Assembly (NCBI GenBank): GCA_040753575.1
Contig: JBFMEC010000003.1
Span: forward strand, 1-38,243
DNA: 38,243 nt
Source of the DNA: Nitrospirota bacterium
Lineage (GTDB): Bacteria; Nitrospirota; Thermodesulfovibrionia; Thermodesulfovibrionales; SM23-35
Direction: 5' to 3'
The notes below the pieces were generated by a model. The model saw only the letters and a program-made list of their open reading frames with translations, did no database searches and was not told the DNA's origin. This document shows positions 3,133-37,562 of this stretch, piece after piece (the first letter of the stretch is position 1; the number at the start of each line of letters is the position of its first letter). The position numbers and the translations under genes are program-made.

Positions 3133-3708
3133 TTAATGTCTGCGGTGATGGGTGTGTTCCTTCCTGACGATCTTGACGGTACTTGCCTGGGGTCCTTTCT
3201 CTCCTTGCTCTTCTTCAAAGCGTACTTCCGACCCTATCTTTAGCTTTTCAAATCCGTCGAGCACGCTGTTCCGGTGGAAGTAGATCTCTCTTCCACCGAT
3301 TGTCCGGATGAAGCCGTATCCTTCCTCCGGGTAAAGTTTTGAGATCACGCCGTGGGGTAGGAGATCACGGTCTTTTACGTCTCCGTATTGGACGAGGGCA
3401 TATTCCTCAAGCTGGCGGGCTGCTTCTTCAAAGGCATGGTGTACGGCGACAAATATGTCTTCATGACTGTGGTGAAAGGGATGTTCCCGACTTACCACAA
3501 TCTGCCTCTGCGGAACATTTATTACCACCTTTGCTTTGTAAAGATTCCCTTTATGGTGATGCTTGTGAGGCTTTTCGACTGAAACCCTGCAGCTGATGAT
3601 CCCTTCATAATACCTTTCAAGCTTATCAGCCCATTTTTTGATCTCAGCCTCGATGGCATCTTCGTAGGGAGAAACATTGCGGAAAACAATTCTAAGAGGT
3701 GCTTTCAT
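3133..3708 (-). CDS. HPF/RaiA (S30EA)-like domain fused to a C-terminal cold-shock domain, with His-rich patches
   Basis: The N-terminal half (RIVFRNVSPYEDAIEAEIKKWADKLERYYEGIISCRVSVEK...YKAKVVINVP) resembles ribosome-hibernation factor folds. The C-terminal part HGVISKLYPEEGYGFIRTIGGREIYFHRNSV...GSEVRFEEEQGEKGPQA is a CSD (OB fold). His clusters are HKHHHKG, HPFHHSHED and HTHHRRH. Confidence 0.8.
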   Translation of the reverse strand: MKAPLRIVFRNVSPYEDAIEAEIKKWADKLERYYEGIISCRVSVEKPHKHHHKGNLYKAKVVINVPQRQIVVSREHPFHHSHEDIFVAVHHAFEEAARQLEEYALVQYGDVKDRDLLPHGVISKLYPEEGYGFIRTIGGREIYFHRNSVLDGFEKLKIGSEVRFEEEQGEKGPQASTVKIVRKEHTHHRRH

Positions 3709-6873: not shown

Positions 6874-7731
6874 CTATGAACCCATATCACGATGGATGAT
6901 ATTTATACCCACAGGATATTTCTTTAGATAAAGTTGTAGCTTTTCCACGATGGCAGGAGAACGGTGGTTCCCTCCCGTACAGCCGATACCGACTGCTAGG
7001 TAAGACCTTCCCTCCTCAATATACTTGGGGATGAGAAAGTCCAGGAGATCTTTTATCTTGCGCATAAAGGCCTTAGCCTCTGGCTTTTTAAGCACAAAGT
7101 CGGAAACCCTTTTATCCGTCCCATTCAGTGGTTTTAATTCGGGCACGAAGTTCGGATTGGGCAAAAATCTTACATCGAAAAGTAGATCGACATTCTGAGG
7201 TGCGCCGAATTTAAATCCGAAGGAGATGAGACTGACTGACATCGCTTTGTTAACAGGTTTTCCATAAAGAGATGATACAAACTGTCTCAATTGATGTGGC
7301 GTAAATGGAGATGTATCGACAACCCGATCAGAGATCTCCCCGAGAGGAGAGAGTCTTTCCTTTTCAATCCTTATAGCTTCTTCAATATTTCCTCCGAGTG
7401 GATGGGGCCTCCTTGTCTCTTTAAACCGTCTCAAAAGTACGTCCCTTTCAGCCTCGAGAAAGAGGATGTCAGTGGGATATTCCTTCTTCAGTTTTCTAAG
7501 TACATCACTGCTTTCAGACAAAAATTCTTTTTCCCGTATGTCAATCCCGATTCCGATTTTTTTGATCTCTCTGTTTCTTGATATTATCGAAACGAATGAA
7601 TCGATGAGGGCAATGGGAAGATTATCGACGCAAAAAAAGTTGGAGTCTTCAAGGGCTCTAAGGGCAACGGTCTTGCCAGATCCAGAAAGGCCGGTTATGA
7701 TGACTATTCTTGGAAAAGTGCGATCCTTCAC
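6874..7731 (-). CDS. rapZ: RNase adapter protein RapZ (YhbJ)
   Basis: P-loop GLSGSGKT at the N-terminus and C-terminal IGCTGGNHRSP. It sits downstream of rpoN-hpf, the conserved position. Confidence 0.9.
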   Translation of the reverse strand: MKDRTFPRIVIITGLSGSGKTVALRALEDSNFFCVDNLPIALIDSFVSIISRNREIKKIGIGIDIREKEFLSESSDVLRKLKKEYPTDILFLEAERDVLLRRFKETRRPHPLGGNIEEAIRIEKERLSPLGEISDRVVDTSPFTPHQLRQFVSSLYGKPVNKAMSVSLISFGFKFGAPQNVDLLFDVRFLPNPNFVPELKPLNGTDKRVSDFVLKKPEAKAFMRKIKDLLDFLIPKYIEEGRSYLAVGIGCTGGNHRSPAIVEKLQLYLKKYPVGINIIHRDMGS

Positions 7732-8246
7732 CTTAAAGGTTCTATGAGCCCAAAATTGCCATCTTTCCTTCGATATATGACATTAATGTCTCCACTTTTT
7801 GCATTTGTGAAGACGAAAAAGTCCTTATCAAGCAGTTCCATCTGCATGGCCGCCTCATCGGGACTCATCGGTTTCAACTCAAAGCGTTTATTCTTTATAA
7901 TCCTTCCTGGTTCTACAAAAGCTGTCCTTGGCTCTGTCTCTGACTTTCCTTCATTCTTACGATGAGAAACAAGTTTCTCTTTATATTTTTTGACCTGCCT
8001 CTCCAGCTTTTCTATTACTTCATCGATTGAAGAATATATCTCTCCTGTAATTCCTTCGGCTTGAATGAGGACTCCATTAACCTTGAGCAGTACTTCTGCC
8101 TTGTGTCTGTATTTTTCTATGCTGAGGGTAAAAATAGCCTCCGATATGTTTGAGAGAAAACGGTCAAACCTCTTAATCTTCTTCTCAGCATAATGTCTTA
8201 ATGCTGGAGTAACCTCAAGGTGTCTTCCTGTCACAATGATATTCAT
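7728..8246 (-). CDS. hpf: Ribosome hibernation-promoting factor, long form
   Basis: MNIIVTGRHLEVTPALRHYAEKKI... is the S30EA domain, followed by a C-terminal dimerisation extension. It lies directly downstream of rpoN. Confidence 0.9.
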   Translation of the reverse strand: MNIIVTGRHLEVTPALRHYAEKKIKRFDRFLSNISEAIFTLSIEKYRHKAEVLLKVNGVLIQAEGITGEIYSSIDEVIEKLERQVKKYKEKLVSHRKNEGKSETEPRTAFVEPGRIIKNKRFELKPMSPDEAAMQMELLDKDFFVFTNAKSGDINVIYRRKDGNFGLIEPLR

Positions 8247-26479: not shown

Positions 26480-26510
26480 ATGTTAACAAAAATTTTTCCA
26501 AAAATTTTTC

Positions 26511-26540
26511 TTGACTTTCGAGTTATTATTTTGATATAAA
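26511..26540 (+). promoter_or_regulatory. Candidate sigma70 promoter TTGACT-N18-TATAAA with an upstream A5T5-CC-A5T5 block (26488-26509)
   Basis: Hexamers were read directly. The A/T-tract block abuts the -35 like an UP element. The site lies 32 nt after the pheT stop and 23 nt before repeat copy A. Confidence 0.4.
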
Positions 26541-26562
26541 AGTAAGAGACGGATTTGTAATT

Positions 26563-26620
26563 AAAGCCACGAAGGCTTAAAAGAAGACCAGCAGGTCTAA
26601 AAGTTTTCGTGGCTTTTTTT
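26563..26620 (+). terminator. Structured repeat copy A, shaped like an intrinsic terminator (11-bp outer stem, inner hairpin, T7 run)
   Basis: AAAGCCACGAAGGCTTAAAAGAAGACCAGCAGGTCTAAAAGTTTTCGTGGCTTTTTTT. AAAGCCACGAA pairs with TTCGTGGCTTT. The inner hairpin is GACC-AGCA-GGTC. Confidence 0.6.
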
Positions 26621-26741
26621 ATTTGCCGCGGGGAAAGGAGACCGCTGTGGCAAAAATCTTCACTACAATATGAAAAATCCTCAAACTTTTTCAAACCAGA
26701 TGTTAATCATCATTCACATTATCGAAACGGAGGATTTAATT

Positions 26742-27869
26742 ATGGGTACTAAATTTCAGAAAATTTCAACATTACGACTGTTGGCCTTTTTTATATTTTT
26801 TGTGGCCCCCTTTTCAGTTCAGGCGTATGACTTGAATGAAAAGTTATCGATAGAAGGAACTTTAACAGGAGTCTACCAGTATGGAGATTTTGACTTTGAA
26901 GGAATTAAAGACTCTGACAGGGGGTCAGCTGTTCTTGATCTCGGAGTAAACTTCCATCCGGCGGATAAAGACGAATTTCAGATAACCCTCAGCTACGCTG
27001 CTGGAAACGCATGGAATAAAGTAGGTCCTTTCTCTTTGAGTCTTTACGCGGATGATCTTGAAGCTGACCTCAAAAACATAAATGGGAGAGATAGAGATTA
27101 TCTACTTGAGGCATGGTATAAGCACACCTTCGCTTTGTCAAAAAACGCATCACTTGCAGTAACAGGAGGCATCATAGATTCTACGACCTACATTGATGAC
27201 AATAAGTTTGCAAACGACGAAGTGGCGCAGTTCATGAATGAAACATTCGTGAATCATAAGAATGTAAATTTACCTTCCTACGACCTCGGAGGAGTTATAG
27301 AGTTAAATATCTCGAGCTTTTCCATCAGGGCGTTGATGATGAATACGAAATTTGAAGCCGAAGAAAATGACTTCAAAAACTATGATTACTATGCACTACA
27401 ACTCGGGTACACCCTCAATACCTCTTTAGGTGAAGGTAATTATAGGATCTATGGTTTTACAACGAACGATAAGTTTCCATGCTGGGATGAGAGGGATGAA
27501 GGTAGTCTTTATGGTTATGGAATCTCTGCAGATCAAGAACTGAGTAAGATAATCGGGGTTTTTGCAAGGTTTGGCTGGCAGAATGATAAGGCAGTAATAG
27601 TTCACGATGAGATTTATTCCGGAGGTGTCAATATAAACGGGAAATTATGGGGGAGAGAGAAAGACGAGATAGGTCTTGGTTATGCATATCTCGATGGTGC
27701 TGACTGTGGAGATATTGACAACACAAATGCTATCGAGGCTTACACCAAATTCAAGATATCCGATTTCAGCGATGTAACCTTTGATGTCCAGTACATTAAT
27801 GATAACATGAAGCATGGTGAAGACAGAGATGGATTTATTTATGGGATCAGGTTAAACGCGTATTTCTAA
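26742..27869 (+). CDS. Outer-membrane beta-barrel porin (OprB/carbohydrate-porin-like)
   Basis: The start is trimmed to ATG 26742 (GGAGGA 7 nt upstream). It has a signal peptide ending ...FSVQA, an alternating beta-strand pattern and a C-terminal ...RLNAYF with terminal Phe. Confidence 0.65.
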
Positions 27870-27906
27870 CCAATTTAAAAACTTAAATTATAAGGAGGTA
27901 GTAACC

Positions 27907-28680
27907 ATGAAAAAAGGGATCGTAAAAGCAGTATTAACAACTATGATACTCATCGTATCTGTTTCCCTGTCTTGGGCACATTTTGGAGTGATCATCCCCT
28001 CTGATGACATTGTTTCAAAGCAGGACAAAAAGGAGATAACCCTTCAGGTAAAATTCATCCATCCTTTTGAGGGACACTATATGAATATGGAAATGCCAAA
28101 GGCATTTGGCTTTATGATGGGCGGGAAGAAGCATGATCTCCTGCAAACCCTGAAAAAGAAAGCAGTAAAGGGTTTTACTACATGGGAGGCTTCATATAAG
28201 ATTACGCAGCCCGGAGACCGCGTCTTCTTTGTCGAACCAGCACCTTACTGGGAACCTGCAGAAGAAAGTTTCATCATTCATTACACGAAGGTCATAGTGA
28301 ATGCCCTCGGTCTTGAGGAAGGATGGGATAGTGAGGTAGGACTTAAGACCGAGATAGTGCCTTTAACAAGACCTTACGGACTCTGGGCAGGTAATGTGTT
28401 TCAGGGGATTGTAAAAGTGGATGGCAAACCTGTACCTTATGCAGAGGTGGAGGTTGAATATTACAATGAAGGGGGAAAGATAAAGGCACCCGATGAACCA
28501 TATATAACCCAGGTTATCAAGGCTGATGAAAGCGGTGTATTCACCTATGCAATGCCAAAGGCTGGATGGTGGGGATTTGCAGCTCTGAATACTGCTGATT
28601 ACAAGCTGAAGCATGACGATAAGGAATACCCTGTTGAGATCGGTGCTGTGCTGTGGGTGAAGACGAGGGAGATGAAATAA
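27907..28680 (+). CDS. Periplasmic DUF4198 protein, the NikK/CbiK-type accessory component of the ECF Ni/Co transporter
   Basis: The signal peptide ends [12 protein letters not shown]. It has a DUF4198-like beta-sandwich ([26 protein letters not shown]...). Its stop overlaps the cbiM start (TAATG). Confidence 0.75.
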
Positions 28681-29291
28681 TGCATATATCAGAAGGTGTA
28701 CTTTCGGCATCCGTCCTTTTGACGGGTGCCCTGATTACCGTGGGTGGAACAGCTTTGGGACTAAAGAAGATGGATTATGAAAAGATACCCGAGGTAGCAG
28801 TTCTTTCATCAGCCTTTTTTGTCGCCTCATTGATCCATGTTCCGATAGGTCCATCAAGTGTTCATTTAGTTCTCAATGGCCTTGTAGGTATACTTTTAGG
28901 CTGGATGGCTTTTCCTTCTATTCTTGTAGCCCTTGCACTGCAGGCACTCCTGTTTCAATTTGGCGGATTTACCTCTCTTGGTGTAAATACCTTTAATATG
29001 GCAGCACCGGCTGTTATAGCCTATTATCTCTTTAACTTTACAATAAGAAAAGCAAATCATTTCATAAGCATGCTTGCAGGGTTTGGTGCGGGCCTGACGG
29101 GTCTAGGACTTGGTGCACTATTCGTTGCAATAGCCCTCGTAAGCACAGGAGAGAGCTTTCTTAATGTTGCAAAGATACTGGTTGTTGCTCATCTTCCTGT
29201 GATGGTAATTGAAGGAATTATAACATCCTTCTGCGTTGTCTTTTTGAAAAAGGTAAAACCAGAAATTCTGGAGGAGGTGGGAAAAAGATGA
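28680..29291 (+). CDS. cbiM: ECF-type Ni/Co transporter substrate-capture subunit CbiM/NikM
   Basis: The start is trimmed to give the N-terminus MHISEGVLS, the family hallmark Met-His metal-binding terminus. It has 6-7 TM helices. Confidence 0.9.
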   Translation: MHISEGVLSASVLLTGALITVGGTALGLKKMDYEKIPEVAVLSSAFFVASLIHVPIGPSSVHLVLNGLVGILLGWMAFPSILVALALQALLFQFGGFTSLGVNTFNMAAPAVIAYYLFNFTIRKANHFISMLAGFGAGLTGLGLGALFVAIALVSTGESFLNVAKILVVAHLPVMVIEGIITSFCVVFLKKVKPEILEEVGKR

Positions 29292-29947
29292 AATCTGGAT
29301 TCAGGCATCTTATTTTTTGTTTACTTTTTACTTTTTGCTGTCTACTATTTGTTTCTCTTGCCAATGCCCATAAAGTAAACATCTATGCTTATGCTGAGAA
29401 TGGGTTGGTTCACTCAGAAAGTTATTTTGTTGATGGCACGAAGTGCAAGAATTCCGTTTTAGAGGTTTTTGATGAAAAAGACGGAACCAAACTCCTTGAG
29501 GGTAAGACTGATGAAGAAGGAAAGTTTTCTTTTAAAATCCCTAAGGTCACATCCCTTAAACTCGTCCTTCATGCGAGCATGGGACATCAGGCCGACTTCA
29601 CCCTTGGTGAAGATGAGGTGAGAGAGGCAATGGGTGTGAAACAGCCTCCCAAGTCACCATCTGTTAAGGTGCCCTCAAAATCAGAAGGCAGTGCTTCAAT
29701 GAAGACTCAAAAAAAGGAGACTGCAGAAATATCAGAATTAAAAGGTATATCTGAATCCGAGATAGAAGCAATCGTTGAGAGTGCTGTCGATAAGAAGCTC
29801 CAGCCTGTAATGAGGATGCTTGTTAAGCTACAGGAAAGCAGTGGAAAGCCAGGCATTACCGAAATAATTGGCGGAATTGGTTATATTATAGGTATTTTAG
29901 GAATTGTAGCGTATTTCAAAGCCAGAAGGAGAATGAAGAGAGACTGA
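29288..29947 (+). CDS. NikL-like accessory protein: signal/TM, small beta-sandwich (carboxypeptidase-regulatory-like), C-terminal TM anchor
   Basis: ...ANAHKVNIYAYAENG...LEVFDEKDGTKLLEGKTDEEGKFSFKIPK...HASMGHQADF, then the ITEIIGGIGYIIGILGIVAYF TM helix. It occupies the CbiN position between M and Q. Confidence 0.6.
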   Translation: MKSGFRHLIFCLLFTFCCLLFVSLANAHKVNIYAYAENGLVHSESYFVDGTKCKNSVLEVFDEKDGTKLLEGKTDEEGKFSFKIPKVTSLKLVLHASMGHQADFTLGEDEVREAMGVKQPPKSPSVKVPSKSEGSASMKTQKKETAEISELKGISESEIEAIVESAVDKKLQPVMRMLVKLQESSGKPGITEIIGGIGYIIGILGIVAYFKARRRMKRD

Positions 29948-29948
29948 T

Positions 29949-30698
29949 ATGCACCTCGAGGAATTTGCAGAAGGTAACTCTTTTTTACACAGGCTTGATC
30001 CAAGGGTTAAATTTATAACCGCCATCCCGTACATCTTTGTCATCGCTGTTATGCAAGGAACAAAAGGTCCATTGTTAGCCCTTATGATTTCCCTTTTAAT
30101 GATAGCTCTTAGCCGCATAAGCTTTAAAAAGCTTATTGGAAGGTTGATTGTTGTAAATACCTTTATATTGGTTCTATGGATATTCCTCCCCTTTAGTTAC
30201 CCTGGAGAGGCAGTTTTTATTATAGGTTCTCTAAGGGCTACCCATGAGGGTTTTCTTTATGCCCTTTCCATTACACTTAAGGCCAATGCCATTGTGCTTG
30301 CAACCATAGCAATCCTTGGCACATCAGAAATATTTTCCCTTGCCCATGCCCTTGTACATCTAAGAGTGCCTGACAAGCTAATTCACCTATTTTTTTTCTT
30401 CTACAGATACATTAGCGTTTTACACGAGGAATATACGAGATTAAAAAATGCAATGGCCATAAGATGTTTCCAGACAGGAACAAATATACATACATACAGA
30501 ACATATGCATATCTTGTTGGTATGCTGATAGTAAGGAGTTATGATCGCTCCCAGAGGATTTACAGGGCTATGTTGTGCAGAGGTTTTGGTGGTAAGTTTC
30601 GTGTAATGAGCCATTTTGAACTTAAAAGAGGAGATGTATTATTCGGTATACTGATGGTCTTGATAACATCATTTATGGGACTTTTGTTTCTTTTATAA
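29949..30698 (+). CDS. cbiQ: ECF transporter transmembrane (T) component CbiQ/NikQ
   Basis: The protein is polytopic. It has LDPRVKF near the N-terminus and a conserved Arg-rich cytoplasmic loop (AMAIRCF...). It lies between cbiM-like and ATPase genes. Confidence 0.85.
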   Translation: MHLEEFAEGNSFLHRLDPRVKFITAIPYIFVIAVMQGTKGPLLALMISLLMIALSRISFKKLIGRLIVVNTFILVLWIFLPFSYPGEAVFIIGSLRATHEGFLYALSITLKANAIVLATIAILGTSEIFSLAHALVHLRVPDKLIHLFFFFYRYISVLHEEYTRLKNAMAIRCFQTGTNIHTYRTYAYLVGMLIVRSYDRSQRIYRAMLCRGFGGKFRVMSHFELKRGDVLFGILMVLITSFMGLLFLL

Positions 30699-30701
30699 AG
30701 A

Positions 30702-31364
30702 ATGAGCATGGAAGAATATTTAATAGAGATATGGGATCTGGGCTTTAGCTATGCCAATGGGAGAAAGGTATTTGACGGCTTGAATTTTTCTCTTAAAAGG
30801 AGAGAGAGGATTGGCCTTACAGGCCCCAATGGTGCTGGCAAGACGACATTCTTTCATCTGATAACAGGGCTTTTGAAACCTGATTCAGGTGAGATAAAAA
30901 TATTTGGGAAGGTCAGAAGGCATGAGAAAGACTTCATAGAGGTAAGACAGAAGATTGGTCTTTTGTTTCAGGATTCTGATGACCAGCTATTTTCTCCAAC
31001 TGTTGAGGAGGATATTGCCTTTGGTCCATTAAATCTTGGGAAATCCCTTGAAGAGACAAGGACTATTGTTAGAGAAACCTGTGAGAGATTAGGGCTTTCG
31101 GGTTTTGAGAAACGGGTTACCCATCGGCTTTCAGGAGGCGAGAAAAGGCTTGTGGCACTTGCCACAGTTGTGGCTATGAATCCTGAATGTTATTTATTGG
31201 ATGAGCCTATTACAGGACTTGATGAAAAAACAGCGGATAAATTTTTAAGATACCTGAAAGAGCATGCAGATACGTATGTCATAATTACCCATGATCGAGG
31301 ATTCTTAAAGGGTGCAGTAGACAGGATTTATATGTTAAATGATAGTAAAATTACCGAGATTTAA
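30702..31364 (+). CDS. cbiO: ECF transporter ATPase CbiO/NikO
   Basis: Walker A GPNGAGKTT, signature LSGGEKR and Walker B YLLDEP. Confidence 0.9.
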   Translation: MSMEEYLIEIWDLGFSYANGRKVFDGLNFSLKRRERIGLTGPNGAGKTTFFHLITGLLKPDSGEIKIFGKVRRHEKDFIEVRQKIGLLFQDSDDQLFSPTVEEDIAFGPLNLGKSLEETRTIVRETCERLGLSGFEKRVTHRLSGGEKRLVALATVVAMNPECYLLDEPITGLDEKTADKFLRYLKEHADTYVIITHDRGFLKGAVDRIYMLNDSKITEI

Positions 31365-31457
31365 TCAAAATGGTTTTTTGAAAAAAAACTATAGAGATTA
31401 ATTCAATTTAATCTACGAAGGACTAAGCAGAGACCCCTTAGAAATTTTTAGGACTGA

Positions 31458-31510
31458 AAAGCCATGAAGGCTTTGCACCAGATAGTGATCTTTCGTGGCC
31501 TTTGTGTTTT
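31458..31510 (+). terminator. Structured repeat copy B, terminator-like
   Basis: AAAGCCATGAAGGCTTTGCACCAGATAGTGATCTTTCGTGGCCTTTGTGTTTT. GCCATGAAGG pairs with CTTTCGTGGC (two G-U pairs). The inner hairpin is CAC-CAGATA-GTG and the tail is T-rich. Confidence 0.55.
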
Positions 31511-31538
31511 GAGGACCTTTTGACCTAATCAAGCAACG

Positions 31539-31589
31539 AAGGAGCAATCCTCCTAAGAAAGGAGGCGAAAAAAAATCTTAGGAGGAAGC
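31539..31589 (+). promoter_or_regulatory. Leader with one anti-SD (CCTCCT) and three SD-like boxes; an 11-bp hairpin can sequester the real SD of the 66-aa ORF
   Basis: TCCTCCTAAGA (31548-31558) is the exact reverse complement of TCTTAGGAGGA (31576-31586), which contains the SD 4 nt before ATG 31590. The same CCTCCT can instead pair with AGGAGG (31560-31565) or AGGAG (31540-31544). Confidence 0.45.
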
Positions 31590-31790
31590 ATGGAAGAACT
31601 CGTAAAAATAAGGAGTTTACTTGATTACTGGTTAGAACATAACAATGAGCACGCAGAAATGTATATGAATTGGGCAAATAAGGCTTTGTCATTTGGTAAT
31701 GAAGAATTATCAAAAATATTCATTAGGCTTTATCTTGAATCAAAAAGATTGAATAGGCTTTTTGAGGCGGCTAAGAAAGCGAGCAGTTAG
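31590..31790 (+). CDS. Small helical protein (66 aa) with an EHNNEH motif
   Basis: A strong SD is present. The sequence MEELVKIRSLLDYWLEHNNEHAEMYMNWANKALSFGNEELSKIFIRLYLESKRLNRLFEAAKKASS is a predicted helical hairpin with an HxxxH motif. I recognise no family. Confidence 0.6.
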   Translation: MEELVKIRSLLDYWLEHNNEHAEMYMNWANKALSFGNEELSKIFIRLYLESKRLNRLFEAAKKASS

Positions 31791-31850
31791 TTCTGAAGAA
31801 CTGAATCTGCGCGACTGAATTTTACCGTTTCAGGCTGTATAAAACATTTT

Positions 31851-31901
31851 GCCATGAATAGGCCATGAAGGCTTTCTGCCAGAAGGCGGATGTCGTTGTG
31901 G
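31851..31901 (+). repeat. Structured repeat copy C (degenerate, no T-run), with a partial tandem duplication of the 5' box
   Basis: GCCATGAATAGGCCATGAAGGCTTTCTGCCAGAAGGCGGATGTCGTTGTGG. The 5' box is GGCCATGAAGGC. The inner hairpin is CTGCC-AGAA-GGCGG and the 3' half is TCGTTGTGG. Confidence 0.4.
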
Positions 31902-31990
31902 AGTATTATACTCAAATCCCGAGGGACATGACGGTTATAATACTAATAAAAATCCGGAGAGGCTTTAGCCTTATACCAGGAGGATTTGTT

Positions 31991-32263
31991 ATGAAAGGAA
32001 AACACGAACACAAACATTTGCATTCTCACAGGCATTTGCATAAACACTCCCACGAGCATCCTCACAAGGACAAAAAACACAGCCATGAGCATTTCCATGC
32101 ACACAGTCATGAACACGAGCACGAGCATGAACACGAACATACTCACAAAGGGAAATCTGAAAAGCATGATCATGAGCATAAAGACAAGCATGGTTCTCAT
32201 GATCATGACCATCCCGGACACGAGAAAGTAATACACAAGCATAAAGGCAAAACGAAAAAATAA
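31991..32263 (+). CDS. Histidine-rich protein, 90 aa with 33 His in an alternating HxH pattern; probable metal-binding/storage protein
   Basis: The start is trimmed to ATG 31991 (CCAGGAGGA upstream). The sequence is MKGKHEHKHLHSHRHLHKHSHEHPHKDKKHSHEHFHAHSHEHEHEHEHEHTHKGKSEKHDHEHKDKHGSHDHDHPGHEKVIHKHKGKTKK. There is no signal peptide and no Cys. Confidence 0.75.
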   Translation: MKGKHEHKHLHSHRHLHKHSHEHPHKDKKHSHEHFHAHSHEHEHEHEHEHTHKGKSEKHDHEHKDKHGSHDHDHPGHEKVIHKHKGKTKK

Positions 32264-32325
32264 AAAGAAGGTTCTGAACAAGAAGTTCAGAATATAAGTA
32301 ACATTTAATACGATTTAGAAAACAT

Positions 32326-32373
32326 AAAGCCACGAAGGCATGCACCGCGAAGGTGAGCTTTTGTGGCTTTTTT
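32326..32373 (+). terminator. Structured repeat copy D, shaped like an intrinsic terminator
   Basis: AAAGCCACGAAGGCATGCACCGCGAAGGTGAGCTTTTGTGGCTTTTTT. The outer stem is up to 13 bp with G-U pairs. The inner hairpin is CACC-GCGAA-GGTG, followed by a T6 run. It is preceded by a separate 8-bp hairpin TTCTGAAC/GTTCAGAA (32272-32292). Confidence 0.6.
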
Positions 32374-32397
32374 GTGTGGAGGGAAAAGATCGGAACC

Positions 32398-33150
32398 ATG
32401 AAAGGACAGAGTTACGGGATCATAACCTCGGTATCTATCCACACTATTATCATCACAATATTTCTGATGCTGTCTATTCATAAAAATGTTAATGAACTTA
32501 AAACGTTTTATATTCAATTCACGCAGATAAGGGAACCCACTATGCAAGAGCCTTCACCATTCAAAGAAATAAAGAAACATATGGTGTCTGTGGCAAACAA
32601 AAGGGATGTTAGAGAAAAAGAACATGATAACAGGATAAAAGAAGAAATACCTTTAATAAAAGAACCGCCCGTCGAAGAAAGGGAAACTGTAATTAGGAAT
32701 GATGCAACTGAGAGTTATGAGGTAGTCAAGGTAGCAAGCCTTCCTGCTTCTGACACAAAGGAATCTGCACCTATATATGGCAAAGGTCATCAAGGGAATG
32801 AAGGCACAGATAGTAGTATATCATATACGGCATCATCTGGCAGTACATCTTCTGGCATTGAGACCGAGTTCGGCTCCAGAGGAGCCCCCGCTTTCTTGAA
32901 AAGGCAATTGCCTGTTTATCCCATTCTTGCGAGAAAACTCGGCAAGGAGGGCAAGGTAGTTTTGAGGCTTTTTATAAATGAAAAAGGGCAATTGAAGGAT
33001 ATTGAAGTGGTTGAGCCGGCTGGCTATGGCTTTACAGAAGCTGCTGTAGAAGCGGTAAAGATGTCGACCTTTTCACCTGCACGTGAAAAAGGTGTAAGCA
33101 CTGCATCAAAGGCCTTGCTTACAATCCGTTTTGTTCTGAAAAAGGTCTGA
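32398..33150 (+). CDS. tonB: TonB-family energy transducer
   Basis: The start is trimmed to ATG 32398, because the GTG at 32353 lies inside the terminator-like repeat. It has an N-terminal TM helix, a charged/Pro linker and a C-terminal TonB domain (PVYPILARKLGKEGKVVLRLFINEKGQLKDIEVVEPAGYGFTEAAVEAV). Confidence 0.85.
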   Translation: MKGQSYGIITSVSIHTIIITIFLMLSIHKNVNELKTFYIQFTQIREPTMQEPSPFKEIKKHMVSVANKRDVREKEHDNRIKEEIPLIKEPPVEERETVIRNDATESYEVVKVASLPASDTKESAPIYGKGHQGNEGTDSSISYTASSGSTSSGIETEFGSRGAPAFLKRQLPVYPILARKLGKEGKVVLRLFINEKGQLKDIEVVEPAGYGFTEAAVEAVKMSTFSPAREKGVSTASKALLTIRFVLKKV

Positions 33151-33171
33151 TGCCAAGGAGAAGAAATACAA

Positions 33172-33606
33172 ATGGAATGGCTTAAGGCATTGGTTGATTA
33201 CGGAATCATCGGACTTCTAATAATTATGAGCATTATTGCAGTCGCAATAACAGTGGAAAGATATCTCATATTCAGGAAAATCAGGGTTGAAAACTTCAAT
33301 GATAAGAAAACCCTTGAAATAGAACTCACAAAAAAAATGCATATCATAGCAACTATAGGAAGCAATGCACCGTATATTGGATTGCTCGGCACTGTGCTTG
33401 GCATTATGCTCACATTTTATACAATGGGCAGGGAAGGACTGATGGATACCGGCAAGATCATGACAGGGCTTGCCCTTGCACTGAAGGCTACCGCTATAGG
33501 GCTTGTTGTTGCTATCCCCTCCATTACCTTTTATAACTTTCTTCTGAGGAAGGTGAAAGTGCTGATTGCACAATGGGAGACCATAAATGGAAGAGAAAGA
33601 ATTTGA
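33172..33606 (+). CDS. exbB: MotA/TolQ/ExbB-family proton channel
   Basis: APYIGLLGTVLGIM...ALALKATAIGLVVAIP, three TM helices. It sits next to tonB and exbD. Confidence 0.85.
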   Translation: MEWLKALVDYGIIGLLIIMSIIAVAITVERYLIFRKIRVENFNDKKTLEIELTKKMHIIATIGSNAPYIGLLGTVLGIMLTFYTMGREGLMDTGKIMTGLALALKATAIGLVVAIPSITFYNFLLRKVKVLIAQWETINGRERI

Positions 33607-33976
33607 CTATATAAATGTTATTCCGCTTGTGGATGTGATGCTTGTATTGCTCACAATTGTGTTAACTACATCGACGTTCATAGCCTCTGGAATGATCAAC
33701 GTATCGCTTCCGAAGGCATCTGCTGAACACAAGGAGATTCTGAAAAATCAGATTATATGCATTGATAGAGACGGAACAGTCTATCTCAATTCATCACCGA
33801 TAACACTTGATGAACTAAAAGACAAAATGCTTCTTCTAAACAAAATAACCCCTATCTTGGTACGTGCAGATAGGGACATCAGGCTTCAGGTATTTGTGGA
33901 TGTCTTAGATATCATCAATAACCTGGGATTCAGGAAAGTTGCAATACAGACAGAAAAGGGAGGTGAGATAAAGTAA
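33587..33976 (+). CDS. exbD: ExbD/TolR-family biopolymer transport protein
   Basis: INVIPLVDVMLVLLTIVLT, a single TM helix and a periplasmic domain. It overlaps the exbB 3' end. Confidence 0.85.
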   Translation: MEEKEFDYINVIPLVDVMLVLLTIVLTTSTFIASGMINVSLPKASAEHKEILKNQIICIDRDGTVYLNSSPITLDELKDKMLLLNKITPILVRADRDIRLQVFVDVLDIINNLGFRKVAIQTEKGGEIK

Positions 33977-34134
33977 AAAGTTAAAAATGAAAGTGAAAAG
34001 TTAGAAGAAAATCGAAGGGCAAGGATGACCTTTGGGGGGACACCCTGCCCTTGAGGGAAACGCTGCGAAATACAACGCCCCCTTGTCATTTTAACAGAAA
34101 AAGGGGGTGGGAGAAAAATTCAGGAGGTGAAAGG

Positions 34135-36165
34135 ATGGAAAGGGGTTTAAGAATTTTTATGAGTTGTCTTTTGAGCCTATTGCTAATTATTGCATCAGTT
34201 GCATTGGCAGAGGAAAATGAAAAGGAAGAAACAGAAAAGGAAAAGGAGAAAAAAGAAGAAGCGAAATCTGAAGAAATGCCTGAAGTAGTAGTTATGGGAG
34301 AGCCCTTGGTAAAGGGTTTGGAAGAAAAGCTGAAGGAGCAACCTACGACTATTCATTCAGTCTATGGAGAAGAGATTGAAAATATGGATATTAAAAGGAC
34401 CCTTGATATTATCAGGAGAATTCCCGGTGTTATGGCAGAAAACTATAACCAGCAGGGTGTTGCTGCGGCGTATTCTTTCAGGGGGTTCAGGGCAGGCCAT
34501 GGGATCGGAGCAGGTTGTTATCTGGACGGAATACCCTACAATGAAATAAACCATGTGGATGGGGATGGATATCCCGATTACAACACCATTCTGCCCGAAT
34601 CCATTGAGAAGCTGGAGGTTATTAAGGGGCTATTCTCCCCACTTTATGGAGGTTATGCACAGGCAGGCATTCTGCATTACATTACTAAAGACAGAGGCAA
34701 TGACACAAAATTAAAGCTCTCTACCGGCTCGTGGAATTATCAGCGGGGGGTCTTTGAAATATCCCGTGAATTTGAACGTTTCTATACTTATAACGGCATT
34801 GATTTTGAAAGAGGTGATGGATACAGAGACCATAGTGAATGGCAGAAAGGGACGGTTTTTTCACGGTTTGGATACAAAATTGATGAAAAATCAAATGTCA
34901 GACTAACCCTCCATTCCTATAAGATTGTCTGGGATGCTCCGGGCCCGCTTCCAAAAGCAGATTGGGATGATGGTAATTTGAAGAAGGCTACAACAGACGG
35001 CGGCGGTGATAAACAAAAATATATGGCCAGCGTCGACTACAGCCGCAGCCTGAGTAAATCTTCCGAGATTAATATAGTCGGATATGGCTATCACAGTGAT
35101 TTTACCAGGTGGGTAGGTGCGAGCAATGAGGAGAGGAACGATTTAAGGGACACATTCGGCTCACGCGTAATGTACTTCCTCTCAAGTCACATTGCAGGAG
35201 TAGAAAACGGCCTCATAATCGGTGTGGACTACGAATTTAATAACTCTGATGCGCACAAGTGGAGTGTCCAACACCCCAAAACAAGAGAGCGAAAACAGGA
35301 GACATTATCCGGTGAATTCGATTTTCACAACATAGCACTCTATTTTCAGGACGATATCAGGCTGTCCCCTTTAATAAAATTTTCGTTGGGCAGCCGCTAC
35401 GAGATACTGAAAGGTGATCTGAACAATAAACTTACTGACAAAGAAAGTTCTTACAATGAAGAGGTATTCAACCCGAAAGCTGGAGTACTAATAACACCCG
35501 TTAAAGGATTCGATATATTCGGCAATGTTGGAACAGGTTTTGTGCTTCCTGCAGGATTTAAAAAATTTGAAAATGCCAAACTCGACCCTTCAAGGCTAAC
35601 CTCTTATGAAGTTGGAACAAGGTTTCAACCTCTTGCAAAATCACTCTTTCAGTTAGCCCTTTTTCGCACTGATACCAAAGACGAGGTAATTATAGACCCA
35701 ATTACCTTGGAGGAAATAAATGCAGGCGAGACAAGACGAGAGGGTGTTGAGGTAAGCGCTGAATATTATTTCATGCCAGTTTTACTTGTCTATTTAAACG
35801 GTGTTTACCAGAAGGCAAAGTATACAGATTACAACACTCAAAGCGGGGATTTCAGCGGCAAAGATATACAGAGAGTGCCTAAGTATATAGCAAGCACAGG
35901 TATAGAGTATTTCCCAGCAAAGGGATTTTGGGGGAGTCTTACAGGAACTTATACGGGCAAACGGTGGACTGACATCCAAAATACTGTACGTGAGGATGAT
36001 TTTTTTGTTGCTAACGCCTTACTTCGTTATGCCTGGCAGAAATATACGGTAACACTCTTTGCCAATAATCTCTTCGATAAAAAATACGCTGAGTTGCGCG
36101 GTGCTACCGACTATTATCCCAATGATCCGTTTAATGTTACTTTGAGTTTCAGTATGAAATTTTAA
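34135..36165 (+). CDS. TonB-dependent outer-membrane receptor
   Basis: The start is trimmed to ATG 34135 (AGGAGGTGA upstream). It has a signal peptide, an acidic/Lys low-complexity tract, a TonB-box-like PEVVVMG, a plug (IEKLEVIKG) and a 22-strand-type barrel ending ...LSFSMKF. Confidence 0.9.
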   Translation: MERGLRIFMSCLLSLLLIIASVALAEENEKEETEKEKEKKEEAKSEEMPEVVVMGEPLVKGLEEKLKEQPTTIHSVYGEEIENMDIKRTLDIIRRIPGVMAENYNQQGVAAAYSFRGFRAGHGIGAGCYLDGIPYNEINHVDGDGYPDYNTILPESIEKLEVIKGLFSPLYGGYAQAGILHYITKDRGNDTKLKLSTGSWNYQRGVFEISREFERFYTYNGIDFERGDGYRDHSEWQKGTVFSRFGYKIDEKSNVRLTLHSYKIVWDAPGPLPKADWDDGNLKKATTDGGGDKQKYMASVDYSRSLSKSSEINIVGYGYHSDFTRWVGASNEERNDLRDTFGSRVMYFLSSHIAGVENGLIIGVDYEFNNSDAHKWSVQHPKTRERKQETLSGEFDFHNIALYFQDDIRLSPLIKFSLGSRYEILKGDLNNKLTDKESSYNEEVFNPKAGVLITPVKGFDIFGNVGTGFVLPAGFKKFENAKLDPSRLTSYEVGTRFQPLAKSLFQLALFRTDTKDEVIIDPITLEEINAGETRREGVEVSAEYYFMPVLLVYLNGVYQKAKYTDYNTQSGDFSGKDIQRVPKYIASTGIEYFPAKGFWGSLTGTYTGKRWTDIQNTVREDDFFVANALLRYAWQKYTVTLFANNLFDKKYAELRGATDYYPNDPFNVTLSFSMKF

Positions 36166-36329
36166 CTCAGAGACAAAAAAGAGAATTTTGTTTGGGCTAA
36201 ATTCTAATTATAGGCCTATAAAATTTGGAGGGAGGTGATATATGAAGCTGCTGGTTAGGATTTTAAAAGTCTAAGTGTATAAATTCTTATTAAATAAGAT
36301 GAGAGCAAAATAATCTCTACGGAGGAAAC

Positions 36330-37049
36330 ATGTGTAGAATAATCATAAGAAGCATATTAAGCGTTTTAATGGTGTTCACGTTTTTATGTCCTGTTTTCGC
36401 CCATGATATATGGGTAGAAAAACAAGATGGGAAACTTATTATTTTATATGGTCATGTCGACAAAAATAAGTTTGAGTCCATAGAGCCAGCGAAAATAAAA
36501 GAGGTAAAAGGATTTGACAAGAACGGGAAGGACATGAGAGTGAAAATTGAGCAGAACAAAGATAGTTTATCAATATCCCCTGCAAAAGAAGTAGCGGCTA
36601 TCGAACTATTTTTTGATGGTGGATACTGGGTAAAAACAACCGAGGGGTATAAAAATATATCAAAACGGGAGGCTAAAGAGTATATCGAGTCTATGCACTC
36701 CATAAAATATGGTAAATCTCTTTTCAGCTGGAACCGCAAGTTTGTAGAGCCCTTTGGAATGAGATTTGAGATAATTCCATTAAAAAATCCCTTTGAGATA
36801 AAAAAAGGGAAGGTGCTTCCAATAAAGGTGCTTTTTGAAGGCAAGCCTCTTGAAGGTGCATCAATCAAACTATCGGGTTATGGAAAAGAGACAACAGAGT
36901 TGGTAACTAATAAAAATGGTACGGCAGATATTGTTATTGAAAAGGCGGGAATTCAGATAATCACTGCACGACATAAGATTCCACTTAAAGATAACCCCGA
37001 TGCTGATAACCTTTCTCTTGGAACAGCATTGACTTTTGAAGTGAAATAG
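36330..37049 (+). CDS. Second periplasmic DUF4198 (NikK-like) protein
   Basis: The signal peptide ends VFA-HDIWVEKQDGKLIILYGH. The beta-sandwich segment LFEGKPLEGASIKLSGYG...NKNGTADI parallels the protein at 27907-28680. Confidence 0.75.
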   Translation: MCRIIIRSILSVLMVFTFLCPVFAHDIWVEKQDGKLIILYGHVDKNKFESIEPAKIKEVKGFDKNGKDMRVKIEQNKDSLSISPAKEVAAIELFFDGGYWVKTTEGYKNISKREAKEYIESMHSIKYGKSLFSWNRKFVEPFGMRFEIIPLKNPFEIKKGKVLPIKVLFEGKPLEGASIKLSGYGKETTELVTNKNGTADIVIEKAGIQIITARHKIPLKDNPDADNLSLGTALTFEVK

Positions 37050-37562
37050 ATGATTAGAATTATTATAACAGTGCTTCTGCTCCTGATATCATCAGGGGCA
37101 GAAGCCCATTCTGTCCATTATCAGGTAGAAAACAAGGGCATCAGTGTGCGGGTGTTCTATGCAGAGGATGATTCGGCAAGTTATTCCAAGTATGAGATAT
37201 TCGGGCCGGGAGACACAATTCCCCATCAGAAAGGGCGAACCGACAAAAACGGCTTCGTCTCGTTCCTTCCCGATCGTCAGGGGAAATGGGTGGTAAAGGT
37301 CTATGGAGAATCCGAGCATGGAATGCATGGCGCACAAATCGAGGTTGACGTCAACGAGGATCTCTTTATGGTCTCTTTCAAAAAACCTCTCGTTGCACAG
37401 TATAGAAAGGCCTTTGTGGGCATTAGTTTCATTCTGGCAATATTTAGCCTATGGACTCTATTGAAAAACCGAAAAAGCAAAAACAAAATATCAAAACATC
37501 ATTTTTCTGAAAAAGCAATTGATTATGGATTGTCAGAGAGGAGAAAAGATTCCGAAAAATAA
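37050..37562 (+). CDS. Second NikL-like protein (signal peptide, small beta-sandwich, C-terminal TM anchor)
   Basis: AEAHSVHYQVENKGISVRVFY...HQKGRTDKNGFVSFLPDRQGKWVV...HGMHGAQIEV, then the FVGISFILAIFSLWTLL TM helix. It has the same architecture and AH.V / G(K/R)TD..G.(F/V)SF landmarks as 29288-29947. Its ATG abuts the upstream stop. Confidence 0.55.
   Translation: MIRIIITVLLLLISSGAEAHSVHYQVENKGISVRVFYAEDDSASYSKYEIFGPGDTIPHQKGRTDKNGFVSFLPDRQGKWVVKVYGESEHGMHGAQIEVDVNEDLFMVSFKKPLVAQYRKAFVGISFILAIFSLWTLLKNRKSKNKISKHHFSEKAIDYGLSERRKDSEK

Follow-up and report, generated by a model that had tools for sequence, protein, structure and literature searches.

What does a long run of same-strand genes supply to an uncultured Thermodesulfovibrionales bacterium (Nitrospirota), and what is the role of the hairpin-forming repeat that lies in its gaps? 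The genes are carried by contig JBFMEC010000003.1 of assembly GCA_040753575.1, of which positions 1 to 38,243 (forward strand) were analyzed and are referred to here as the window. Within it the gene run has the following extent.

26488-37562, + strand: cluster of 14 genes, between the pheT stop codon (26479) and a convergent gene (37575)

A first-pass annotation made from the sequence alone had counted 13 genes; we found 14, which is also the number in that annotation's own list. Every family assignment it made was upheld by profile searches, and the genes for the porin, TonB and the receptor probably start downstream of where the longest open reading frames (ORFs) begin. We consider the locus to be, probably, a nickel-acquisition regulon in which two modules are joined. 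This reading draws on the gene identities, the conserved ligands, the recurrence of the modules, gene fusions, and the conservation, structure and gene associations of the leader element in the gaps. The two modules, porin-K-M-L-Q-O(-DUF8180) and TonB-ExbB-ExbD-receptor-K2-L2, each recur separately in related genomes, and the locus is their junction. The transporter core is of a known kind, while the combination of a dedicated porin with receptor-K2-L2 is a variant.

Which transporter does the first module encode? Its genes are as follows.

26742-27869, + strand: OprB-family outer-membrane porin (PF04966, 45.6 bits)
27907-28680, + strand: NikK1, periplasmic DUF4198 protein (PF10670, 206 bits)
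28680-29291, + strand: NikM, substrate-capture (S) component of an energy-coupling factor (ECF) transporter (PF01891 CbiM, 189 bits; NF004905, 281 bits against a cut-off of 173)
29288-29947, + strand: NikL1, membrane-anchored periplasmic subunit (NF058648, 172 bits against a cut-off of 100)
29949-30698, + strand: NikQ, ECF T component (PF02361 CbiQ, 131 bits; TIGR02454, 153.7 bits against a cut-off of 111.8)
30702-31364, + strand: NikO, ECF ATPase of 220 amino acids (PF00005 ABC_tran, 106 bits)

By gene content, module 1 is a predicted ECF nickel/cobalt importer of the NikKMLQO kind, in which M, Q and O are accompanied by K and L instead of NikN/CbiN. Profile searches detected neither CbiN nor PDGLE in any ORF of the cluster. 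The profile matches, together with an alignment to PDB 4M58 (the solved nickel-binding NikM2), placed M, Q and O in the nickel/cobalt ECF family and not in a vitamin ECF family, as had been proposed. The N-terminus of NikM reads MHISEG; Met1-His2 is kept in the alignment, and His62 is the equivalent of His67. NikO is short, lacks a C-terminal extension and scored 188 bits against the cbiO subfamily model, under its cut-off of 211.8. The signal-peptide junction of NikK1 was read as ...SLSWA followed by HFGV, with His as the predicted mature N-terminus. NikK1 gave no meaningful match among solved structures, and its second nickel ligand was not alignable. The assignment of K and L as the NikK and NikL accessory subunits stood in the profile searches and in a NikK structure match that we obtained for the second K protein (below).

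To see whether this arrangement recurs, gene neighborhoods were compared in 52 loci (L001-L052) found by a NikQ scan. These came mostly from Thermodesulfovibrionales and other Nitrospirota metagenome-assembled genomes (MAGs), with identities of up to 86%. The core [porin]-K-M-L-Q-O was present throughout the 52 loci. The porin gene lay 5' of nikK in 13 of them, as it did in L087 and L128, and 3' of nikK in L070. One or more of the TonB, ExbB, ExbD and receptor genes trailed nikO in L001-L003 and L008, and in L008 module 1 was directly followed by TonB-ExbB-ExbD-receptor, the same junction as in the window. Because the two modules recur apart in related genomes, the 14-gene order is a junction and not a conserved unit; the expected co-occurrence of the genes in relatives was thus found, while recurrence of the full order was not.

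What, then, does the second module add?

32398-33150, + strand: TonB (PF03544 TonB_C, 60.6 bits)
33172-33606, + strand: ExbB (PF01618, 103 bits)
33587-33976, + strand: ExbD (PF02472, 82.7 bits)
34135-36165, + strand: TonB-dependent outer-membrane receptor (Plug, 64 bits; barrel, 146 bits)
36330-37049, + strand: NikK2, periplasmic DUF4198 protein predicted to bind nickel (DUF4198, 94 bits; PDB 9gcb, E = 9e-26)
37050-37562, + strand: NikL2-like membrane-anchored periplasmic protein (NikL N-terminal region, NF058648, 41 bits, under the cut-off)

A receptor with Plug and barrel domains, TonB, ExbB and ExbD together are, as judged from their sequences, a TonB-dependent transport system, a class whose receptors have a 22-strand barrel; the transmembrane helix of TonB carries an SxxxH motif that we read directly. 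NikK2 aligned over its full length with 9gcb, deposited as NikK, starting from the mature His1, and it kept His18. The ligand segments agreed, with HDIWVE... in NikK2 for HDAWVE... in 9gcb and LYGHVD for LLGHPD. His1 and His18 are the two protein ligands of nickel in 9gcb, which binds nickel best of the metals with a dissociation constant (Kd) of 18 nM (PMC12537917). NikK1, NikL1 and NikL2 are likewise predicted, by reading the sequence, to have His as their first residue after signal-peptide removal. NikL2 had no significant Pfam family. The nearest solved relatives of the receptor were YncD/PqqU (E = 2e-35), followed by FhuA and CntO, and its best NCBIfam match was a siderophore-receptor subfamily, under the cut-off. 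A weak RsaE/RoxS-like match in a C-rich stretch 5' of the receptor gene (34053-34123, - strand; 24 bits, E = 1.9) is probably due to chance.

These receptor matches would also fit a TonB-ExbBD-receptor-K2-L2 half that is an uptake system in its own right, perhaps for a siderophore or other chelate, and merely adjoins the nik operon. The receptors of L001-L003, which are just 25-34% identical to that of the window, speak for the same explanation. We nevertheless regard it as unlikely, since one and the same leader element stands before module 2 and before the nik operon, and K2 is a NikK with both nickel ligands. The module also recurs behind the element, in the order element-methyltransferase-TonB-ExbB-ExbD-receptor-K2-L2 in L088 and element-receptor-K2-L2 in L094, where the receptor is 66% identical to ours. 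Furthermore, K2/L2-type proteins are located within M-K2-L2-Q-O operons in L086 and L141 and are therefore real ECF accessory subunits. We thus retain module 2 as part of a nickel system. The duplicated K/L pair and the presence of a TonB-dependent receptor along with a porin had been called unusual; both are there, and neither point is new, since an earlier study had noted genomes with two distant NikK/NikL pairs (PMC2667541) and TonB-dependent nickel receptors are known, some of them from comparative genomics (PMC11247825).

How might these genes be controlled? The gaps of the cluster hold copies of one hairpin-forming element, which we scored with a covariance model (R1).

26512-26541, + strand: inferred promoter-like site, TTGACT-18 nucleotides-TATAAA, read from the sequence just 5' of copy 1
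26563-26621, + strand: leader hairpin copy 1 (R1, 63.1 bits; fold -29.8 kcal/mol, z = -5.8)
31458-31507, + strand: leader hairpin copy 2 (R1, 52.6 bits)
31859-31910, + strand: degenerate leader hairpin copy without a U-run (R1, 19.4 bits, E = 0.014)
32326-32375, + strand: leader hairpin copy 3 (R1, 57.8 bits; fold -28.7 kcal/mol, z = -4.7)

Copy 1 has the arms GCCACGAAGGC and UUUUCGUGGC around an inner hairpin, followed by a U-run, and all three strong copies are stable hairpins with a U-run. At the position homologous to the degenerate copy, L164 holds a strong one (51.6 bits). The core GCCAYGAAGGC had four exact matches in the window, every one of them on the + strand and within an intergenic gap of the cluster; when up to one mismatch in the 11 nucleotides was allowed there were five matches against 0.57 expected, the fifth (with one mismatch) at 1890. 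In 19 of the 52 related loci the core was found at the same places, that is, before the porin gene or nikK, after nikO and before receptor genes. All of these copies were on the coding strand except one, which was the second hairpin arm in L024. Across 24 instances the stem was 93.7% paired, as compared to 23-46% when the partners were slid, and one stem pair alternated between C-G (12 sequences) and U-A (11 sequences). The suggestion of RNA-like copies at the unit boundaries was therefore confirmed by the core count, the R1 scores and the covariation: the element is a real, conserved structured RNA.

Promoter-like signals 5' of the element would place it early in the transcript. Related loci had TTGACA and an extended -10, spaced from the element as in the window, and in many loci promoter-like hexamers occurred at a fixed short distance 5' of it. 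In unit 1 and its homologues the hairpin would begin ~8-20 nucleotides after the predicted transcription start, and there is therefore no room for a separate upstream aptamer. A generic promoter/terminator scan gave no excess over shuffled sequence and missed the promoter-like site. A stable hairpin with a U-run between a promoter-like site and a gene is, in its predicted form, an intrinsic terminator or attenuator; regulated read-through is our proposal. A search of Rfam 15, including NiCo and Cobalamin, found nothing in the cluster at gathering thresholds, and at E up to 10 it gave four chance-level matches, none of them at the elements. We also tried reading the repeat as a DNA operator and judged this less likely because the arm spacing varies while the U-run is always present.

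Two kinds of leader variant were seen. At 26622-26641, after the U-run of the porin leader, lies GCCGCGGGGAAAGG, which resembles the conserved arm and is able to base-pair with the terminator 3' arm. Segments of this type were found in the homologous leaders of L002, L006, L008, L023, L027, L029 and L031; they covary with the terminator 3' arm (CGGGGC with GCCCCG in L027) and overlap the Shine-Dalgarno sequence where the porin gene starts immediately, which suggests a second, translational layer of control. The receptor leaders L001:14265-14330, L002:13464-13525 and L003:11827-11890 have the conserved arm and no terminator, and in them a hairpin pairs CUCCUGAA with the Shine-Dalgarno sequence UUCAGGAG instead. 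From the predicted pairing, these would be a variant of the element that acts on translation.

Does the element mark nickel genes in other bacteria? A pattern scan of 185,579 genomes returned at least 120 stretches, and 89 with well-paired arms were among the matches listed. The same pairing behavior was seen in 78 instances from other genomes, although conservation in this wide set is partly circular because the search pattern fixed both stem arms and the U-run, which counts against our reading. The arm GCCAYGAAGGC was kept across several phyla. Cultured organisms that have the element include Thermodesulfovibrio yellowstonii (a weak copy, L020), Desulfoluna butyratoxydans MSL71 (L120) and Thermovorax subterraneus DSM 21563 (L061). 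In 70 loci among the matches listed, the first gene 3' of the element encoded CbiM (nine), a small S-adenosylmethionine (SAM)-dependent methyltransferase (nine), DUF4198 (six), a TonB-dependent receptor (six), a MetA-type outer-membrane channel (four), ExbB (three) or DUF3842 (three), with two each for TonB, FecCD, NikA-type binding proteins (SBP_bac_5), PDGLE and OprB porins. In an Oscillospiraceae MAG (L122:961-7511, - strand) the element heads larE-larB-larC, all three above their NCBIfam cut-offs, with genes for a fused NikB/C-like permease and a NikA-like binding protein behind them. The larEBC genes are those of nickel-pincer cofactor synthesis. A type-B form of the element carries two CCAYGAAGG motifs. 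A G-U wobble recurs in the conserved stem, and G-U wobbles can bind metal ions. We found no published description of the element, which appears to be undescribed so far in the literature searched.

Other genes behind the element were also noted. The small methyltransferases are among the commonest first genes, and a subgroup with an N-terminal WIEHNNYH adjoins TonB/receptor genes (L088:283-993, L143:5565-6266, L164:6385-7131, L169:2132-2827). Homology of this motif to the WLEHNNEH of the DUF8180 protein described below was rejected, as profile comparison gave a probability of 3%. An FmdE-domain protein with a DksA-type zinc finger is encoded behind the element at L057:6747-7358, and one directly behind the fused nikO at L175:6349-6939; in L066 a further FmdE-domain protein comes after a pattern match whose arms pair poorly. 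The element also precedes genes for DUF3842 proteins, in L079, L095 and L150. Large secreted proteins with many DxDxDG-like repeats followed it in L082:1084-2850, L092:1954-3699 (which matches DUF6802) and L119:2378-4006.

Could the control lie with a protein instead? No NikR, Fur, CsoR/RcnR or two-component gene and no match to RHH_1 or NikR_C came up in Pfam scans of the larger ORFs of the window (outside the cluster, those of at least 90 amino acids), and the earlier statement that no protein regulator is encoded nearby was borne out. The only helix-turn-helix (HTH) protein in the scanned window is at 1035-1319, 25 kb off. The cluster has no NikR box of the form GTGTTAC-N13/14-GTAACAC, a consensus that is delta-proteobacterial. 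Each strong copy being a stable hairpin with a U-run, the copies could be ordinary intrinsic terminators or a local repeat without any sensing, with regulation by a protein encoded elsewhere; a regulator such as NikR could be encoded outside the window, which also tells against the reading we prefer. We think this improbable, given that the 11-nucleotide arm is kept across several phyla, that the 3' arm covaries with it, that the element is associated with nickel-uptake genes, that in unit 1 and its homologues the hairpin is close behind the predicted start and stands before genes and not behind them, and that the cluster has no delta-proteobacterial NikR box. We infer instead a nickel-responsive attenuator, in which the RNA itself may bind nickel or, alternatively, may be bound by a protein.

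Which metal does the system carry? This had been held to be unreadable from the sequence, a statement that stands only in part. The metal stays a matter of inference, yet comparative evidence favors nickel over cobalt because the NikM ligands are kept, K2 keeps both nickel ligands of NikK, relatives have an adjacent nikR, there is no B12 riboswitch, and the element precedes larEBC with a NikA/BC-like importer. The nikR gene adjoins the operon in L046 (read from the sequence) and in L175. The Rfam search found no cobalamin riboswitch in the window, and the Pfam scans found no cbi genes in it beyond the cluster. Several points weigh against nickel. The best NCBIfam matches of M, Q and O are named cobalt transporter CbiM/CbiQ/CbiO, a few proteobacterial NikK1ML1QO systems are predicted cobalt importers (PMC2667541), a zinc-binding DUF4198 protein, Zcp, is known (PMC12663993), and the nearest solved relatives of the receptor are uninformative on its substrate. 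Cobalamin riboswitches, moreover, occur near the element in some of the same neighborhoods (L064:5311-5487, L094:6441-6628, L143:2068-2277). On the strength of the names, the proteobacterial systems and these riboswitches, the locus could import cobalt for corrinoid synthesis and not nickel. This seems to us a doubtful explanation, since the window has neither a B12 riboswitch nor cbi genes, the riboswitches in those three loci head different genes from the element, the element precedes larEBC, NikR adjoins related operons, and the NikK relative 9gcb has nickel as its best-bound metal. The riboswitch in L143 heads a receptor gene. Zinc, for the DUF4198 proteins alone, is unlikely but possible. 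Nickel thus remains the metal that we favor.

What happens to the metal behind the ATPase? Two very small proteins are encoded between nikO and the TonB gene.

31590-31790, + strand: DUF8180 protein of 66 amino acids, containing HNNEH (PF26551 by precomputed annotation, also for its relatives)
31991-32263, + strand: poly-His protein of 90 amino acids, with 33 His and 18 Lys by composition count

In the DUF8180 protein H17, N18 and E50 are invariant among close homologues, and H21 is nearly so. Its AlphaFold model is a helix-loop-helix with a predicted local distance difference test (pLDDT) score of 96.9, and in this modeled hairpin H17, H21 and E50 would be brought together. Profile and fold comparisons with solved structures gave only non-significant matches, led by rubrerythrin/ferritin halves and followed by ESCRT-III hairpins and designed helical repeats; from these the idea of a ferritin-like dimer is a hint and nothing further. 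Among 1.84 billion representatives, 312 relatives were recovered with the family profile, mostly of 60-100 amino acids. Several are fused to the C-terminus of an ATP-binding cassette (ABC) ATPase (P0032, P0052, P0069), and in P0032, P0069 and P0039 the ATPase and DUF8180 are separated by a His-rich stretch. The ATPase part of P0032 is 33% identical to the NikO of the window, and P0069 belongs to an operon (L175) of the order nikR-cbiM-PDGLE-cbiQ-[ABC-His-DUF8180]-FmdE. These NikO-His-DUF8180 fusions mean that what the window encodes as three genes, for NikO, DUF8180 and poly-His, is a single polypeptide elsewhere. The poly-His protein had been described as embedded in the middle of the locus. 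It is indeed there, and neither it nor the DUF8180 protein is a random insert, the two of them matching the His-rich and DUF8180 extension on NikO in other bacteria. The poly-His gene has an AGGAGG 7 nucleotides 5' of the ATG, its product has no significant Pfam family, and a homologue with 62% identity lies 3' of pheT in L164. Short His tails on NikO itself (NLIHEHxHRHG...) occur in L086 and L141.

Since other bacteria fuse a His-rich stretch and DUF8180 to the NikO C-terminus, both mini-proteins are probably cytoplasmic partners of this ATPase, a link that appears to be undescribed so far in the literature searched. DUF8180 lies directly 3' of nikO in 15 of 47 assessable loci. Its absence beside nikO in two thirds of the loci makes it an accessory component and tells against our reading. 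The element precedes the DUF8180 gene itself in the window, L003, L004, L006 and L073. As the protein is small and helical with a likely metal site, and type-B elements carry two similar motifs, it could be a trans-acting regulator, a Rop-like helical-hairpin dimer that binds two similar leader loops in a nickel-dependent manner. We find this very hard to credit, because several lineages have the domain as part of NikO, a membrane-associated ATPase, many element loci have no DUF8180 within reach, and the profile and fold comparisons showed no significant similarity to any RNA-binding protein. A role beside NikO remains the one that we prefer for DUF8180.

Other small features lie near nikO. 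Cys/His-rich ORFs of 55-65 amino acids and the form MCCH...CCH adjoin nik genes at L104:7801-7965, L162:3416-3607 and L134:26-220; they are just 3' of nikO in NikMN-type operons (L104, L162) and just 5' of two element copies in L134. Short GYUCUGAAGARC hairpins follow nikO or the mini-protein genes (31793-31806 and 32268-32292 in the window) and lie just 5' of the post-nikO element in L001, L003 and L004. The UGAA loops of these hairpins are similar to the motif CCUGAAGG in the receptor leaders.

Taken together, the parts suggest the following path. The porin would admit nickel to the periplasm, where K and L, with their signal peptides removed, may capture it by the N-terminal His and pass it to NikM. 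NikM would bind it through the N-terminal Met1-His2 and His62, and NikQ and NikO would power import with ATP. For nickel that is scarce or chelated, module 2 would add an energized way across the outer membrane, with K2 and L2 as its periplasmic capture pair. DUF8180 and the poly-His protein, most likely acting where NikO faces the cytoplasm, might accept and buffer incoming nickel, or might sense it and throttle the pump. The leader hairpin would most likely end transcription early when nickel is sufficient, and premature termination would turn off all four units together. It also weighs on our reading that the metal, the order of hand-off, what the mini-proteins do, and which way and by what sensor the RNA control works have a computational basis throughout. 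In its joint form the proposal holds that a nickel-responsive leader RNA, with the terminator stem GCCAYGAAGGC / GCYUUCRUGGC and its G-U wobble, is itself the sensor or the target of an RNA-binding factor, that it governs a nickel regulon across Nitrospirota, Desulfobacterota and Firmicutes, and that DUF8180/His-rich peptides are a cytoplasmic nickel-sensing or hand-off module for NikO. We put this forward tentatively, as a conjunction that may well fail in one of its parts.

The rest of the window is occupied by housekeeping genes, including thrS-infC-rplT-pheST, lpt genes and rpoN. One 191-amino-acid protein (3133-3708, - strand) combines an S30AE (ribosome-hibernation) N-terminal domain, a cold-shock domain and a His-rich tail; a standard hibernation factor is encoded nearby at 7728-8246.

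What would follow if the proposal is true? Bacteria are known to control nickel uptake through NikR or through other proteins that sense metals. A leader RNA in front of the nickel importers, outer-membrane routes and nickel-pincer genes of several phyla would be a new mode of nickel sensing, and genes related to nickel could be found with the element as a sequence tag. The link of DUF8180 and His-rich peptides to NikO gives a DUF of no assigned function a testable role and points to an unstudied step, the fate of nickel as it leaves an ECF transporter. Because these anaerobic organisms rely on nickel enzymes, the locus has a bearing on trace-metal limitation in sediments and hot springs.

How does the locus compare with systems already described? 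In MetN, ModC and MalK, C-terminal regulatory domains of ABC importer ATPases mediate feedback inhibition. By likeness to these, an extra C-terminal module of the ATPase could, as a hypothesis, sense the level of substrate in the cytoplasm; there is no homology, however, and DUF8180 is a 66-amino-acid helical hairpin that is encoded by a separate gene in the window. Hpn of Helicobacter pylori is a His-rich nickel-binding protein. The poly-His protein resembles it in being a very small cytoplasmic protein with more than a third His, a low-complexity sequence that prevents an assessment of homology; it differs in that its gene lies inside the uptake cluster and the protein matches the His-rich linker of fused NikO.

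The NikKMLQO importers defined by Rodionov et al. 2004 (PMC545781) and Zhang et al. 2009 (PMC2667541) have the same subunit set and order, K, M, L, Q and O without N, and the same NikM N-terminus. The described systems are mostly proteobacterial and lie behind NikR sites, whereas the window has no nearby nikR gene or NikR box. It differs further in having an OprB-type porin first, a second K/L pair behind the receptor, and DUF8180 and poly-His genes after nikO. FrpB4/FecA3 of Helicobacter pylori and predicted nickel receptors (PMC11247825) likewise link TonB-ExbB-ExbD and a receptor to a nickel importer. The only known nickel receptor among the solved matches of our receptor is the distant CntO, and in the window the receptor is followed by a NikK/NikL pair in a unit that is headed by an RNA hairpin and not by a NikR site. 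Relative to the solved DUF4198 proteins, 9gcb/IsDUF4198 NikK (PMC12537917) and Zcp (PMC12663993), K2 is a full-length match with His1 and His18, whereas K1 is a strong DUF4198 protein with an N-terminal His and without a direct match to the solved proteins. With the metal riboswitches NiCo/czcD, Mn yybP and Mg M-box, the element shares the principle of a cis-acting leader RNA of metal-transport genes that works via a terminator; the 2024 metal-sensing review that covers these lists no RNA controlling nickel import (PMC11672702). Unlike them, the element of the window is ~50-60 nucleotides long and without an Rfam match, its conserved sequence is the terminator stem, and it heads uptake genes and not efflux genes.

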